Shown here in pieces: positions 54,677-60,122 of a stretch of DNA of 64,000 bases. This DNA is from Planctomycetota bacterium (GTDB lineage Bacteria > Planctomycetota > UBA1135 > UBA2386): contig JAJFFD010000092.1 of NCBI GenBank assembly GCA_021776805.1, positions 22,089 through 86,088 of the forward strand, given 5' to 3'. Below the pieces are notes generated by a model. The model searched no databases, was not told the DNA's origin, and saw only the letters and a program-made list of their open reading frames with translations. Position numbers and translations under genes: made by a program. Within the stretch, counting starts at the first letter, position 1. Each line of letters opens with the position of its first letter.

Positions 54677-55114
54677 ATGCCGAAGCCAACCAAGGCTGAA
54701 CAGAATAAGTATGAGGCCCTCTTGGAGCGCCATTTGGCGCTGCTTAGTGGGGATGTGGGTTCGATGCGGGATGAAGCCCTGCGCGCCTCTGAACAGGACT
54801 CATCCGTGGACAACCTCGCTGATCAGGGGACAGATACCTACGATCAGGGCTTCCTGCTCGGGTTGATTGAGAACGAAGAGGAGACCATCCAGCTGATCGA
54901 CGGAGCGCTAGCGCGCCTCCGTGGCGAGTCTGAGCAGGCCTTCGGGCTCTGCACCCGCTGCAAGGAGATCGCTGATAGCCAGAAGGCCAAGAAGACCAAG
55001 TCCAAGGCCAAGATCGACCCTTGGATCGCGAAGGAACGCTTGGAATATCTCCCCTGGGCCCAATACTGCGTTGAGCATCAGTCTGAGCTCGAGCAAGAAC
55101 GCGAAATTGCCTGA
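54677..55114 (+). CDS. TraR/DksA family transcription factor
   Basis: Coiled coil with LADQGTD tip, IDGALAR, FGLCTRC..I.KERLE.LPWA.YC. Confidence 0.88.
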   Translation: MPKPTKAEQNKYEALLERHLALLSGDVGSMRDEALRASEQDSSVDNLADQGTDTYDQGFLLGLIENEEETIQLIDGALARLRGESEQAFGLCTRCKEIADSQKAKKTKSKAKIDPWIAKERLEYLPWAQYCVEHQSELEQEREIA

Positions 55115-55179: not shown

Positions 55180-55797
55180 ATGGTGACAGAGATCCCAAGT
55201 ACGGGCGCGGAGTCAGAAGAGTCCAGGAATCAGGTCGCTGAGGACGGTCCCAGCCTGTTTGTCGGCAAGGCTTGGTTCTGGAGCCTGGCGCCGGTCTTGA
55301 TTCTGGCCGACCTCTGGTCCAAGGCTGCAGTTTTTGCCCACTTGGCAAGCACCTACCCAGGGATGGTCGAGGCTCGACGCAGCCTCTCCGTTTGGGAGGG
55401 CCCGCTCAGTTTCAGCCTCATATGCTGGCGCAATACGGGCACGATCTGGGGAATCGGGCAGGAGTACAACCTCCTGCTGACCATCTTGCGTTGCTTCGCA
55501 GTCCTGCTCCTAGGGCTCTTTATGTGGCGCACTCCCCGTCGCAAGCGTATGCAGCAGATAGTCTTGGCGATGATTGTCGCTGGTGCGGTGGGCAACCTGT
55601 ACGACAATTTCACCGAGCCGGAGGGGGGGGTCAGGGACTTCCTCCTCTTCTACATCGACTTGGAAAAGGGCCCTCTGCAGTGGCCGGCCTTTAACGTGGC
55701 GGATGCCCTGATCTGCGTGGGGGCGATTCTGCTGGTGGTCTTGGTCTGGCAGAGTGACCGGCAGACGGCTCGGGAATCTCAACAGAAATCGTCCTAG
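55180..55797 (+). CDS. lspA: Lipoprotein signal peptidase II
   Basis: DLWSK, NTG.IWG, GAVGNLYD, VRDF, WPAFNVAD. Confidence 0.93.
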   Translation: MVTEIPSTGAESEESRNQVAEDGPSLFVGKAWFWSLAPVLILADLWSKAAVFAHLASTYPGMVEARRSLSVWEGPLSFSLICWRNTGTIWGIGQEYNLLLTILRCFAVLLLGLFMWRTPRRKRMQQIVLAMIVAGAVGNLYDNFTEPEGGVRDFLLFYIDLEKGPLQWPAFNVADALICVGAILLVVLVWQSDRQTARESQQKSS

Positions 55798-55896: not shown

Positions 55897-55949
55897 TGTC
55901 ATGAGGTCCATTCCAGGTGGCTTGGATCCTCGAGAAGCGCGAGACCAGC

Positions 55950-56786
55950 ATGAGGCTCCAAGAGCTCACCCTCGAGATGGTGGCAGAGGCGGTAAGCCTA
56001 TATCTCGATCTTGCCTATGGCAGCGCATCCAGTGGACGGATGCCTGAGCTCAACTTGCCCGCGGACGCTACGCCAGAGCAGGTTCTAGGCCTGTTTAGCA
56101 AGGATGAGCAGGGAGGCGCTAGCCCCTCATCCTGTCTTCGCTACACCATGCGCCTTGGCAACCGAAACTACCCATTCATGAAGCTCCTCTTGCAGGAGCA
56201 TATCGTCGCTGGCGAATACTACTTCGGTGTAGATACGCACGACGATATGGAGATTAAACCGGACTATCCGGACTACGAAGCTTGGATGGCGGTGCGGCGA
56301 TTCAACAGCGATTTGAAGCGCAAGATTGAGGACAGCTTTTGTTCTTCGGGCTTGCCCAGCGCCTTCAATCTGCGTGAACTCTGCAGCCAGCGAACCAGGG
56401 ATGGGGCGGTTGAGGAGATTGGCACCATCCTCGTGGTCGATGATGAAGAGGATCTCGCGGATGCCGTCGAGTCGCTCTTGAGCCTGCGAGGCTACACGAT
56501 GCACAAGGTCTTCGATGGACCCAGTGCAATCGAGGCAGCCCAAAAGATCCAGCCGGACATGATATTGCTCGACTACGAGCTGCCTGAGCTGGACGGCCTC
56601 GCGGTGATCGCTGCCTTGCGGGAGGATGAGTCCACACGTAACATTCCGGTTCTCCTTTGCACGGCCAGCAAGATCAGCCTAGGGGATATCGACAAGGCCG
56701 ATGGCTTCCTCACAAAGCCATACCCAGAAGAGCTTCTCTACAAGATGGTTAACCGCGTGATCAGCAGCAAAGAGTCAGAAGGATGA
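55950..56786 (+). CDS. Response regulator: unknown N-terminal domain plus C-terminal receiver
   Basis: ILVVDDEE, ILLDYELPELDG, LCTA, FLTKPY (intact REC); start ATG 55950. Confidence 0.88.
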   Translation: MRLQELTLEMVAEAVSLYLDLAYGSASSGRMPELNLPADATPEQVLGLFSKDEQGGASPSSCLRYTMRLGNRNYPFMKLLLQEHIVAGEYYFGVDTHDDMEIKPDYPDYEAWMAVRRFNSDLKRKIEDSFCSSGLPSAFNLRELCSQRTRDGAVEEIGTILVVDDEEDLADAVESLLSLRGYTMHKVFDGPSAIEAAQKIQPDMILLDYELPELDGLAVIAALREDESTRNIPVLLCTASKISLGDIDKADGFLTKPYPEELLYKMVNRVISSKESEG

Positions 56787-57094
56787 TCAAGGGAGCTTCG
56801 ATCATCTGGGCCGATCGTGAGCCAGCAAGTGCTCCGGCGGTCACCCTGCTCTTTCTGTTCCTGCTGGTCGGGTCGGGTGTGCTCACACGGCCGCCAGGTG
56901 AGGGCATCGGAACTGCGCTCTGCGCGGCAGCCCGGGTTGAGAAAGCAGAGTCTCGGCGGCTGAGTACAGGAGATCGCTCCTGTCCTGACGAGCAGGGCAG
57001 CGAGTTGAGGCAGTCGCTCCCTGGTTGCCAACCGGCATTTCGCTCCTTGAAGCGGCGCGGCATTCCAGCCCCGCGAGCGCCGGATCTCGCTTGA
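56783..57094 (+). CDS. Candidate SecM-like translation-arrest leader peptide upstream of secA
   Basis: ATGA overlap with upstream stop; hydrophobic AVTLLFLFLLVGSGVL; C-terminal RRGIPAPRAPDLA. Confidence 0.55.
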   Translation: MIKGASIIWADREPASAPAVTLLFLFLLVGSGVLTRPPGEGIGTALCAAARVEKAESRRLSTGDRSCPDEQGSELRQSLPGCQPAFRSLKRRGIPAPRAPDLA

Positions 57095-57275
57095 TCTGAT
57101 AAGGCGACGCGCAGCATTGGGCTGCAGGGCTGAATTTCTGAGATCTGCTCTATTGCCGCCCATGCACTTGCCCTGAGTTTCAGGGATGAGATCGGTAGTG
57201 ATCTACCGCGATTGAGAAAGCTGAAGATCAAGGACAGGAGCTTCTTGGAAGAGCTCAAAGAACGAGGATGAGAGT

Positions 57276-60122
57276 ATGAAATTCGATTTTGGTGGGATAC
57301 CTAAGCTCTTCGGGAAGAGGCTGCAGCGGGTTTTTGGGTCGTCGAACCAGAGATTGTTAAACCGCTATCGCCCGCTGGTGAGCAAGATCAACGAACTCGA
57401 GGATTGGGCTAAGGGGCTGACGCAAGAGCAGATGAAGGCGCAAGCCGCCGAGTGGAGGCAGCAAATCGTCGCTGGTGAAAAGGACTTGGACGATATCCTG
57501 CCAGAGGCTTTTGCGATGACCCGTGAAGCCAGTACCCGGAGTATTGGCCTTCGCCACTTCGATATGCAATTGGTCGGTGGACTCGTTCTGCACACTGGCA
57601 ACATCGCAGAGATGGTGACCGGTGAAGGCAAGACTCTGGTGGCAACGCTTGCTGCGGCACTCAACGCCTTGTCTGGCAAGGGTGTGTATGTGGTCACGGT
57701 CAACGACTATCTAGCCAAGCGTGACCGTGATTGGATGGCGCCGATCTTCGAGTATATGGGGCTCACAGTTGGCGCGATCCAGGCTGCCATGGGCCCCTCG
57801 GAGCGACAGCCGCAATACGCCTGCGACATCATTTACGGCACCAACAACGAGTTCGGATTCGACTATCTGCGCGACAACATGAAGTGGCGCACGGAAGAGC
57901 AAGTCCAAAAGCAGCTCAACTTTGCCATTGTTGACGAGGTGGATTCGATTCTTGTCGATGAAGCCAGGACTCCGCTGATCATCTCAGGGCCACCTGAAGG
58001 TAAGACAGATCGGTATGTGACATGTGATCGCATTTCCCGTGCTCTCAAGGAGGGCGAGGACTTCGAAGTCAAGCTCAAGGAGCAGCAATGCCTTCTTACT
58101 GAAGTCGGCATGGCGAAGGCTGAGAAGATGGCCGGGGTGGACAGCTTCTACTCAGATCCAGCGAACATGGATTGGCCGCATCACATCGAGCAGTCGCTCC
58201 GTGCGCACTACATCTACAAGCGTGACAAAGAGTATGTCGTTGCTGAGAACCAGAAGTCTGGCCGAGTAGAGGTCATCATTGTCGACGAGTTTACCGGTCG
58301 CCTGATGGCTGGTAGACGCTGGAGCGACGGTTTGCACCAAGCCGTTGAAGCCAAAGAAGGCATGACACCGCAGGAGGAGTCGCAAGTTCTCGCCACGATT
58401 ACCTTGCAGAACTACTTCAGGATGTTCAACAAGTTGGCGGGAATGACCGGCACCGCCATGACCGAGGCTTCGGAGTTCGCCAAGATCTACGACTTGGATG
58501 TTGTTGCTATTCCGACCAACAGGCCATTGGTGCGCGATGATCTGAATGACTTGATCTACCTGGATGAGAACGACAAGCACGAGGCGATTGTCGAGGATGT
58601 GCGCGAAGCCTCAGGCAAGGGTCGGCCAGTTTTGGTGGGGACGACTTCTATCGAGAAGTCAGAGAGCCTGTCCGCTTACTTGAAGAAGGCAGGCATCAAG
58701 CATGAGGTGTTGAACGCCAAGCATCACGAGCGGGAGGCAGACATCATCGCTCAGGCCGGGTCCAAGAGTGCGGTCACAGTCGCTACTAATATGGCCGGTC
58801 GTGGCACGGATATCGTGCTTGGTGGGAACCCTGAGATGATGCTCGCCAAAGAGGTCAAGGAAGGGAAAGTCGAGGCGGAATCAGAAGAGGCAAAGAGCCG
58901 GCTCGCTGAGTTGAAACTGATTTGTGGAGATGCGCAGAAGGAGATTCTTGCCGAGGGCGGGTTGCTCGTGATCGGGACAGAGCGTCACGAGTCGCGTCGG
59001 ATTGACAATCAGCTCAGAGGTCGTTGCGGTCGTCAGGGTGACCCCGGCGCTACACGATTCTTCCTCTGCTTCGACGATGATCTCATGCGGATTTTTGCCC
59101 GCGATTGGGTGAAGACGATGATGGAGCGGCTTGGGCTCAAGCATGGCGAAGTGATCGAGAGTCCGATGGTCACACGTGGTATCGAGCGGGCGCAGAAGAA
59201 GGTCGAAGCGAGAAACTTCGACATCCGTAAGAATCTGCTCGAATACGACGAGGTGATGGACAAGCAACGCAAGTTCATCTACGGCCAACGCAAGGAAGTG
59301 CTTCATAAGGAAGGCATCAAGGACAAGATCCTTGGCATGTTCGAGGAAGTGCTCGATATCCAGATCGATCTGCATGCCGGGGACAAGGATGCGCCGGTCG
59401 AGTACGACGAGATTCGAAAGTGGTTCGTGCGCAAGGCTGGCGACCAGATTGATCTTGAAGGCCTTGAGGCTGTTGGCAGAGAGCAGTTGTTCGCTTGGTG
59501 CATCGAGCGCATCGACAAGCACTTCGAGACCCGCGGCGCCCATTTTGGTGAGGAAGACTGGGCCAAGATTCAGCAGTTCTTGCTCCTCGACACCATGGAT
59601 CAGAAGTGGAAGGATCACCTCCACGCCATGGAAGTTCTCAAGGCGGGCATCGGCCTGCGTGGTTACGCGCAGGTCGATCCAAAGAATGAGTACAAGAAGG
59701 AGGGGTTCGAGAAGTTCAAGCTCCTGAAGGAGGCCATTGCGGACCAAGTCACGAACTTGATCTTCAAGGTCGATCTTGGTGGTGAGCAGATGCGCCAGGC
59801 AAGGCCAGCTCCGCCGCCAATGCCCCGGCCGCAGGATCCGGTAACCGCCAAGGCTATGGTAGAAGCCCTGATTGCTGCCGGTCAGGCGCCGCCCGAGATG
59901 CTCAAGGCCATGGCCGAGGGTGGAGAGGTCAGGGTGACGCGGAAGCCACAGCAGTCGCAGAGGGCGACATCGTCCCCTGCCACAGCCAAAGCGCCGCAGA
60001 CAACGAAGGAAGCTCCAGGAGGAGTTGCCAAGGTTGAAGGCAAGCGCGTGGGCCGCAACGATCCTTGTCCCTGCGGATCTGGAGTGAAGTACAAGAAGTG
60101 TTGCCATCCGGCCTTTGACTAG
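57276..60122 (+). CDS. secA: Preprotein translocase ATPase SecA
   Basis: EMVTGEGKTL, VTVNDYLA.RD, DEVDSILVDEARTPLIISG, ATNMAGRGTDI, QLRGRCGRQGDPG, SEC-C motif GRNDPCPCGSG.KYKKCC. Confidence 0.99.
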   Translation: MKFDFGGIPKLFGKRLQRVFGSSNQRLLNRYRPLVSKINELEDWAKGLTQEQMKAQAAEWRQQIVAGEKDLDDILPEAFAMTREASTRSIGLRHFDMQLVGGLVLHTGNIAEMVTGEGKTLVATLAAALNALSGKGVYVVTVNDYLAKRDRDWMAPIFEYMGLTVGAIQAAMGPSERQPQYACDIIYGTNNEFGFDYLRDNMKWRTEEQVQKQLNFAIVDEVDSILVDEARTPLIISGPPEGKTDRYVTCDRISRALKEGEDFEVKLKEQQCLLTEVGMAKAEKMAGVDSFYSDPANMDWPHHIEQSLRAHYIYKRDKEYVVAENQKSGRVEVIIVDEFTGRLMAGRRWSDGLHQAVEAKEGMTPQEESQVLATITLQNYFRMFNKLAGMTGTAMTEASEFAKIYDLDVVAIPTNRPLVRDDLNDLIYLDENDKHEAIVEDVREASGKGRPVLVGTTSIEKSESLSAYLKKAGIKHEVLNAKHHEREADIIAQAGSKSAVTVATNMAGRGTDIVLGGNPEMMLAKEVKEGKVEAESEEAKSRLAELKLICGDAQKEILAEGGLLVIGTERHESRRIDNQLRGRCGRQGDPGATRFFLCFDDDLMRIFARDWVKTMMERLGLKHGEVIESPMVTRGIERAQKKVEARNFDIRKNLLEYDEVMDKQRKFIYGQRKEVLHKEGIKDKILGMFEEVLDIQIDLHAGDKDAPVEYDEIRKWFVRKAGDQIDLEGLEAVGREQLFAWCIERIDKHFETRGAHFGEEDWAKIQQFLLLDTMDQKWKDHLHAMEVLKAGIGLRGYAQVDPKNEYKKEGFEKFKLLKEAIADQVTNLIFKVDLGGEQMRQARPAPPPMPRPQDPVTAKAMVEALIAAGQAPPEMLKAMAEGGEVRVTRKPQQSQRATSSPATAKAPQTTKEAPGGVAKVEGKRVGRNDPCPCGSGVKYKKCCHPAFD

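Follow-up and report, generated by a model that had tools for sequence, protein, structure and literature searches.

A candidate RAP-type arrest peptide encoded upstream of secA in planctomycetes of the order UBA2386

Upstream open reading frames (uORFs) preceding secA, secDF and yidC have been surveyed in more than 30,000 genomes (Fujiwara et al. 2024, Nat Commun 15:2711, PMC10987492). Among the RAPP-like uORFs of the 'RQH family', the Supplementary Data of this survey list a group named uA_RQH_UBA2386 with three members (rows 849, 850 and 866 of the csv file), which come from Planctomycetota of the class UBA1135, order UBA2386, stand before secA and carry the motifs RAPA, RAPG and RAPS; in these entries, the Pro of RAP is given as the P-site residue and all three members are predicted to have a signal sequence (PMC10987492). 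RAPD is also among the query motifs of the survey (PMC10987492). Another group listed there from the same phylum, uA_LPPP, precedes secA in three orders (Phycisphaerales, UBA1161, WQYP01) and stalls B. subtilis ribosomes at LPP/P (PMC10987492). The present analysis concerns an open reading frame (ORF) located upstream of secA in a stretch of 64,000 nucleotides from a Planctomycetota bacterium of the order UBA2386 (assembly GCA_021776805.1, contig JAJFFD010000092.1, positions 22,089 to 86,088 of the forward strand), hereafter called the window.

In its sequence, this ORF shows the features of a RAP-class arrest peptide that monitors Sec, the N-terminal signal being a presumed one, and its product is probably an arrest peptide of the RAP type (RAPP-like, ApcA-like) through which Sec activity is sensed on behalf of secA. 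Judged by its sequence, it is a further, more divergent member (I-P-A-P-R-A-P-D) of uA_RQH_UBA2386. Indeed, the window contains (i) a small uORF co-oriented with and located before secA, (ii) a conserved C-terminal module, (iii) a distance of 66 aa between hydrophobic segment and motif, close to that in its relatives, (iv) an RAPD motif (residues 98-101), and (v) it belongs to the same order. Row 849 of the published list sits on NYVR01000058.1, which is one of the loci of the present data set (L100); its ORF ends SWGLPPPRAPASARS, with the upstream gene and GLPPPRAP in common. When the window ORF is compared with a published member by BLASTP, only 8 aa align, GIPAPRAP to GLPPPRAP, with an E value of 0.047. 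A first-pass annotation, made from the DNA letters alone, had put the ORF forward as a candidate SecM-like secretion monitor and as a candidate undescribed system; it was right on the kind of element and wrong on its novelty, as the group uA_RQH_UBA2386 is already in the Supplementary Data of Fujiwara et al. 2024. No further description was found in the literature on arrest peptides in Planctomycetes/Planctomycetota and on UBA2386. What appears to go beyond the printed record, as far as visible in it, is the comparative anatomy of the 75 sequences, with a conserved stretch of ~21 residues, a spacer of fixed length, the presumed coupling of the uORF to the gene before it, the variants in which RAP is followed by a stop codon and the restriction to a single clade; the supplementary figures of the survey may show some of these. 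The survey lists three members where at least 75 exist, so that uORFs of this kind are undercounted when a survey relies on annotation.

The distribution of the uORF was established from two sets of related genomes. In the first set, secA was located in 40 of 41 genomes and 30 loci were examined, the criterion being an ORF that follows a receiver-domain gene, precedes secA, has a hydrophobic N-terminal part and carries R-[AG]-P near the stop codon; the SecA proteins of these relatives are 62-76% identical to that of the window over the first 400 residues. The uORF is present at 22 of these 30 secA loci, namely at 20/20 of the window's own family (f1) and at 2/2 of family f7, and was not found at eight loci from six other families of the order, one of which has only 108 nucleotides (nt) of upstream sequence. 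The strict pattern is matched in 19 of the 22, the other three being L004 (SPPRAP), L010 (PPVRAP) and L024 (AQPRAP). One further candidate, L029 ('GAPAPRAPLS'), came from a search without a limit on the distance to the stop codon, failed the full criteria and was dropped. In the second set, an alignment of the upstream protein was scanned against one genome per species, which gave 79 loci, 70 of them with secA downstream; 69 of these 70 carry the uORF as defined beforehand, and the exception, L098, has an ORF of the L010 type with RAP 15 codons from the stop. As 16 loci are common to both sets, 75 distinct sequences were available, and the counts given below refer to these unless another number is stated. 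The taxonomy of the published relatives agrees with the planctomycete host that the first-pass annotation had supposed.

The layout common to the carriers consists of an N-terminal hydrophobic segment, a spacer of nearly fixed length whose sequences cannot be aligned among relatives, and a C-terminal module ending in G-L-P-x-P-R-A-P. All the anatomical elements reported at first pass, i.e. the 103-residue ORF, the ATGA overlap, the hydrophobic segment, the RAP codons (CGA GCG CCG at 57074-57082, encoding R98-A99-P100) and the distance of 181 nt to secA, were recovered at the same coordinates; the polar spacer is present too and is longer than the 'about 55 aa' given for it, with 58 aa from L34 to G93 and 66 aa to P100. 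The C-terminus reads GIPAPRAPDLA before the stop codon. The hydrophobic segment of the window uORF reaches a Kyte-Doolittle value of 2.58 in its best 15-residue interval (residues 20-34), within the 2.07-3.12 obtained for the 22 carriers of the first set, and its distance of 66 residues from the Pro of RAP is close to the median of 69 (5-95% interval 64.7-79.1, range 61-111). The median length of the uORF is 105 codons, and its start codon overlaps a stop triplet (NTGA type) in 71/75 loci (20/22 in the first set); through its ATGA, the uORF of the window is presumably coupled translationally to the upstream gene. Frame +0 is open over 93 codons in 74/75 loci, and the other five frames are open in 23-58. 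The product has no Pfam match at E <= 0.1.

The expectation of the first-pass annotation that relatives would retain only the hydrophobic segment and a C-terminal G.P.PRAP is clearly borne out in both sets, and the conserved C-terminal part is longer than the motif proposed there, extending over about 21 residues before the predicted stall point. Numbered backwards from the Arg of RAP (position 0) and counted out of 75, the most frequent residues are P at -18 (31), R at -17 (46), P at -14 (38), R at -13 (50), R at -11 (33), V, I or L at -9 (56), G at -5 (50), L at -4 (62), P at -3 (70), P at -2 (45) and P at -1 (48); positions -2 and -1 vary and can also be A, Q, L, R, S, E, M, W, T, I and others. 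The window keeps P at -18, P at -14, R at -11, L at -9, G at -5 and P at -3. The Arg of RAP is present in 75/75 and the Ala in 73/75, an invariance that is circular because R, A/G and P of the motif were selection criteria. The two remaining loci, L008 and L042, have R-G-P in place of R-A-P (PPPRGPD and PQTRGP followed by stop), Gly being a substitution reported as permissive in ApdA/ApdP.

The codons used for the motif are informative on the level at which it is kept. Indeed, the Arg is encoded by CGC (51), CGT (11), CGG (8), CGA (2), AGG (2) and AGA (1), and the Ala and the Pro are each written with four codons, so that the three residues are maintained through four to six synonymous codons each, and therefore by selection on the peptide. 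Furthermore, of the 45,246 frames of 60-400 aa counted from stop to stop in the genome of the window, 2.0% have R-[AG]-P at 12 residues or less from the stop codon, and only 0.11% have a hydrophobic stretch and a spacer of more than 25 aa as well; with this background and the recurrence of the uORF at the same place in relatives, chance is not the explanation, and the ORF is not a chance ORF. Within a monophyletic clade made up of two families from one order, selection at the level of the peptide maintains the uORF with its three-part layout, in every case between the same pair of genes.

The residue that follows RAP is T in 28 loci, D in 21, a stop codon in 11, G in 5, S in 4, C in 3, P in 2 and A in 1, and R, V and L are common one position beyond. 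When the A-site residue of ApcA (RAPG) was exchanged for all others, arrest was reported with P, C, N, T, S, G, D and A in this place and not with M, V, E, H, L, K, I, Q, F, Y, W and R (Sakiyama et al. 2021); the 64/64 non-stop residues found after RAP fall within this permissive set. A 2025 paper from the same laboratory reports that the Arg of RAP is irreplaceable and that the Ala in the RAPG of ApcA accepts no replacement, and the frequencies of Arg and Ala in the clade agree with this mutagenesis, though both were selection criteria. RAPG gives no arrest in the ApdP or SecM context according to that paper, which indicates that a RAP with a non-proline A-site needs help from the stretch located in the tunnel; the conserved module of about 21 residues would fit such a need for tunnel contacts. 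RAP is directly followed by a stop codon in L035, L037, L042, L044, L045, L074, L078 (=L016), L079, L093, L096 and L102, and in these members the module would have to act at termination and not at elongation.

By analogy with ApcA, the window uORF would stall when its Pro100 (CCG, 57080-57082) occupies the P-site and Asp101 the A-site. In the proposed mechanism, ribosomes would enter the uORF by coupling to the termination of the receiver gene at the ATGA, and the hydrophobic N-terminal segment would emerge and be targeted to the Sec machinery. About 66 residues further on, the ribosome would reach R-S-L-x-x-x-G-I-P-A-P-R-A-P, where the P-site would hold peptidyl-Pro100-tRNA and the A-site Asp-tRNA, and where R-A-P and the tunnel-bound stretch could block peptide-bond formation, as in ApcA, ApdA/ApdP and SecM. 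Pulling by an active translocon would release the stall, and poor secretion would lengthen it and lead to more SecA. The stalling itself, its release by Sec and its effect on secA are thus proposed from these analogues. The features of the locus are listed in Table 1.

Table 1. Features of the uORF-secA locus (positions in the window)
Feature	Position	Strand	Details
Upstream gene, receiver domain	55917..56786	+	Pfam Response_reg 6e-18, residues 171-278
uORF, candidate secretion-monitor arrest peptide	56783..57094	+	103 codons; upstream of secA
ATGA overlap	56783..56786	+	uORF ATG 56783-56785 / upstream-gene TGA 56784-56786
Hydrophobic segment AVTLLFLFLLVGSGVL	56837..56884	+	uORF residues 19-34; presumed signal or anchor sequence
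Variable spacer inside uORF	56885..57019	+	residues 35-79; length kept, sequence not
Putative arrest module PGCQPAFRSLKRRGIPAPRAP	57020..57082	+	residues 80-100
Predicted A-site GAT (Asp101), then Leu, Ala, TGA	57083..57094	+	TGA at 57092-57094
Gap between uORF and secA	57095..57275	+	181 nt; SD-like (Shine-Dalgarno-like) GAGGA at 57264-57268
secA, presumed regulated gene	57276..60122	+	Pfam SecA_DEAD 4e-123, P-loop_SecA 5e-89, SecA_SW, SecA_PP_bind, SEC-C

Several observations weigh against an arrest peptide that controls secA. The main text of Fujiwara et al. 2024 does not mention the group uA_RQH_UBA2386 (0 matches), and the group is not among the representatives studied there in vitro or in vivo. 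The n-region of the window uORF carries no net positive charge, and its Ile at -4 is unique among the 75 sequences, at a position where Leu prevails. Its codon log-odds score is 0.071, at the 4th percentile among real coding chunks and a value reached by 18% of off-frame chunks; the coding-like signal is confined to the first ~120 nt, the score being near zero in the spacer region, and the G+C content (GC) by codon position is 0.68/0.61/0.64 compared with 0.60/0.39/0.70 in the flanking genes. As a coding test for this uORF, the codon statistics are ambiguous, and the window ORF by itself is not convincing. The carriers are kin, so that the counts overstate the independent support, and the 70 loci of the second set were picked by the presence of the upstream gene. 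As a RAP with a non-proline A-site fails in the ApdP and SecM contexts in the published mutagenesis, arrest would hinge on the upstream module. Finally, (i) the minimum free energy of 57060-57300 is no better than that of shuffled sequences (z = +0.42), (ii) masking the stall footprint leaves the accessibility of the secA start (predicted unpaired fraction) at 0.54, (iii) the stall mask is never the most effective mask (0/19 loci), and (iv) a core Shine-Dalgarno sequence (SD) precedes secA in only 20/73 relatives; the window has one.

The arrest-peptide monitor for secA nevertheless remains the best reading on the comparative evidence, and the part of a SecM-like system that is not retained is the unmasking of the secA SD by the stalled ribosome, for which folding gives no support. 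A helix of this kind was rejected on the z-score, on the lack of a masking effect in the 19 loci and on the unalignable spacers, thermodynamic prediction by itself being weak evidence; given the scarcity of SD sequences in the clade, SD unmasking cannot be general.

Among the other explanations, the one that survives best, and is still unlikely, is that the uORF encodes an ordinary small protein, secreted or membrane-anchored, in which the C-terminal G-L-P-x-P-R-A-P is a functional peptide for binding or sorting, perhaps acting on SecA or on the receiver protein. The data show peptide-level conservation of the N-terminus and of the C-terminal motif and do not by themselves show stalling, and no SD-unmasking structure is predicted, all of which such a protein would accommodate. 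However, a middle part free in sequence yet fixed in length would be odd for a folded or binding protein and is typical of monitoring substrates. Furthermore, the invariant core is exactly R-A-P, the next residue is limited to an arrest-permissive set or is a stop codon (11/75), and the ORF always stands directly before secA.

Somewhat less probable still is a pause at a proline-rich L-P-x-P, as in uA_LPPP, with the third codon of LPPP in the P-site and perhaps with sensitivity to EF-P, to which RAP would only lend assistance. Leu at -4 and Pro at -3 are almost as conserved as RAP, about half of the relatives read LPPP with Pro at -2 and -1, and uA_LPPP does stall B. subtilis ribosomes according to the survey. 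However, positions -2 and -1 are variable, and the I-P-A-P of the window contains no polyproline run; the uA_LPPP members come from different orders and, in seven listed rows, end without RAP, and 14 other planctomycete families sampled with the same upstream gene before secA show no such uORF. That the ORF is untranslated, its open frame being a by-product of high G+C in a conserved RNA or DNA element, is hardly credible: the low codon score, the GC at codon position 2 (0.61 compared with 0.38 in neighbouring genes) and the long open antisense frames would suit it, but Arg, Ala and Pro are kept through synonymous codons that include AGG/AGA as well as CGN, frame +0 stands apart from the other frames by being open in all loci but one, the hydrophobic segment and the spacing are conserved though the DNA cannot be aligned, and Rfam is empty.

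The antisense frames in question are two long minus-strand open frames (141 and 165 aa) that cross the uORF within 56738..57258; their codon scores are at or below zero, they are open in 28-58/75 relatives only, and they look like shadow frames of GC-rich DNA.

How a stall in the uORF would act on secA was considered from the intervening sequence. The gap before secA measures 76-303 nt across the relatives (median 138) and cannot be aligned, and no conserved sequence or structure was found in it. Structure in the first 60 nt beyond the predicted stall exceeds that in the preceding 60 nt only slightly (mean z of -0.78 vs -0.26), the window having a value of +0.44. A C-rich leader of the Rho type was rejected as a general feature, the C/G ratio of the spacer being 0.66-1.79 (0.66 in the window). 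The Rfam scan returned only a sub-threshold match to Ocean-VII (16.8 bits vs a threshold of 53.5), taken as chance. One terminator-like match lies inside the uORF, which is the number expected by chance. No sigma-70-like site was detected in 56500-57500; as this consensus may not apply to planctomycetes, secA may still have an internal promoter. Of the sequencing runs listed for the stretch, three are DNA runs from one study and none is an RNA run. In an SD-less subclade (L011, L013, L014, L016 and L018), a pyrimidine-rich GCATTCC recurs in the last ~25 nt before the secA start. If secA were controlled otherwise than by SD unmasking, possible routes from the stall to secA would be that the long leader is kept open or protected, or that premature termination or decay is blocked.

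The gene upstream of the uORF encodes a protein with a receiver domain, which is 52-58% identical to its relatives and probably starts at the ATG at 55950, as indicated by alignment with them. Its N-terminal domain (~160 aa) corresponds to no Pfam family and to no sequence match in the PDB; this domain is well conserved and includes the invariant LGNRNYPFMKL and IKPDYPDY (window; L115-L130). Near-full-length relatives of the upstream gene are present in 64/201 genomes sampled across the phylum. In 20 regions taken from 20 other planctomycete families, secA lies less than 400 nt downstream of this gene in 14, at ~3 kb in one and outside the stretch in five, and the gene may be a phylum-wide regulator linked to secA. 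In none of the 14 close pairs do the two genes enclose an ORF that combines a hydrophobic segment with RAP or LPPP. Common descent with uA_LPPP was considered and left aside: no evidence for it was found in the seven uA_LPPP rows of the survey, which are without RAP, or in these 14 families; Phycisphaerales may not be among the 20 regions.

In the SecA tree, a quick search drawn with midpoint rooting, the 22 carriers of the first set fall on one side of a single branch (Shimodaira-Hasegawa-like approximate likelihood ratio test, SH-aLRT, 96), with family f3 next outside. Judged by its distribution, the upstream gene greatly predates the uORF, and the simplest reading, by this midpoint-drawn tree and parsimony, is that the uORF arose once, within an already old pair of receiver gene and secA. 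It is conceivable, though doubtful as a whole, that the uORFs form one deep clade born de novo inside this gene pair, in which a single module works either in an elongation mode (RAP-T/D, the majority) or in a termination mode (RAP-stop, 11/75), and that secA is controlled by a route other than SD unmasking; with regard to the last element, most members are without an SD, folding predicts no masking helix, and the receiver gene would supply the uORF with coupled ribosomes.

Further upstream in the window, lspA, coding for signal peptidase II, is located at 55180..55797 (5e-29), before the receiver gene, the uORF and secA, and an ORF of the DksA/TraR zinc-finger type is found at 54677..55114 (weak Pfam match of 9e-4, below the cut-off). 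With these two genes nearby, the neighbourhood is secretion-related.

Few tested arrest peptides that sense secretion are known, and none comes from the RAP-x group of Planctomycetota. With the clade, 75 variants of a single module that have arisen in nature become available for a non-proline A-site, some of them with a stop codon there, and comparing them is a way to learn which contributions of the A-site and of the stretch in contact with the tunnel the RAP core requires. A further question is by what means a stall can regulate secA where there is no SD to unmask.

Among the named systems, SecM of Gammaproteobacteria resembles the window uORF in that it immediately precedes secA, has an export signal at the N-terminus (a presumed one in the window), contains R-A in a C-terminal motif and serves, as is presumed here, feedback on secA. 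However, its arrest motif is FxxxxWIxxxxGIRAGP with an obligatory Pro in the A-site, whereas the window reads FRSLKRRGIPAPRAP followed by Asp in the A-site, with neither W-I nor RAGP. Stalled SecM melts a defined SD-masking stem-loop, whereas none is predicted in the window, whose gap is 181 nt long, and most relatives are without an SD. ApdA/ApdP (RAPP, before secDF) share with the window the R-A-P core and the layout of a monitoring substrate, but the Pro of their A-site is obligatory in the published work and the downstream gene is secDF, whereas the window has RAPD before secA, and Pro follows RAP in 2/75 relatives. No RAP-type uORF was found before secDF or yidC in the genome of the window; on its contigs C191 and C170 (genome G000), an ORF resembling ribosomal protein L19 (judged by eye only) precedes secDF and an unrelated ORF of 139 aa precedes yidC.

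The uA_LPPP group shares with the clade of the window the phylum, the downstream secA, a similar distance of ~70 aa, in the rows considered, between the signal (presumed in the window) and the motif and, in about half of the clade, the reading L-P-P-P. However, in the seven csv rows of this group, the uORF ends with LPPP and 2-4 further residues and has no RAP, whereas the window ends GIPAPRAPDLA, has no PPP and belongs to UBA2386; the definition given for uA_LPPP in the survey (the last 15 residues contain LPPP or XPPP, in its three orders) does not describe the window uORF. ApcA of Actinobacteria (RAPG, before yidC) is like the window in that the chain ends in R-A-P with a non-proline A-site, with the Ala near-invariant here, and in that arrest would be expected to rely on an upstream stretch contacting the tunnel. 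It differs in phylum, in the downstream yidC and in its transmembrane anchor, and it is an analogue of the window uORF and not a homologue, similarity in sequence not being expected. The closest system is thus uA_RQH_UBA2386, which, as listed in the Supplementary Data of the survey, has in common with the window the phylum, the order, the downstream secA and the succession of a signal (presumed in the window), a spacer and a C-terminal RAP-x within a few codons of the stop.

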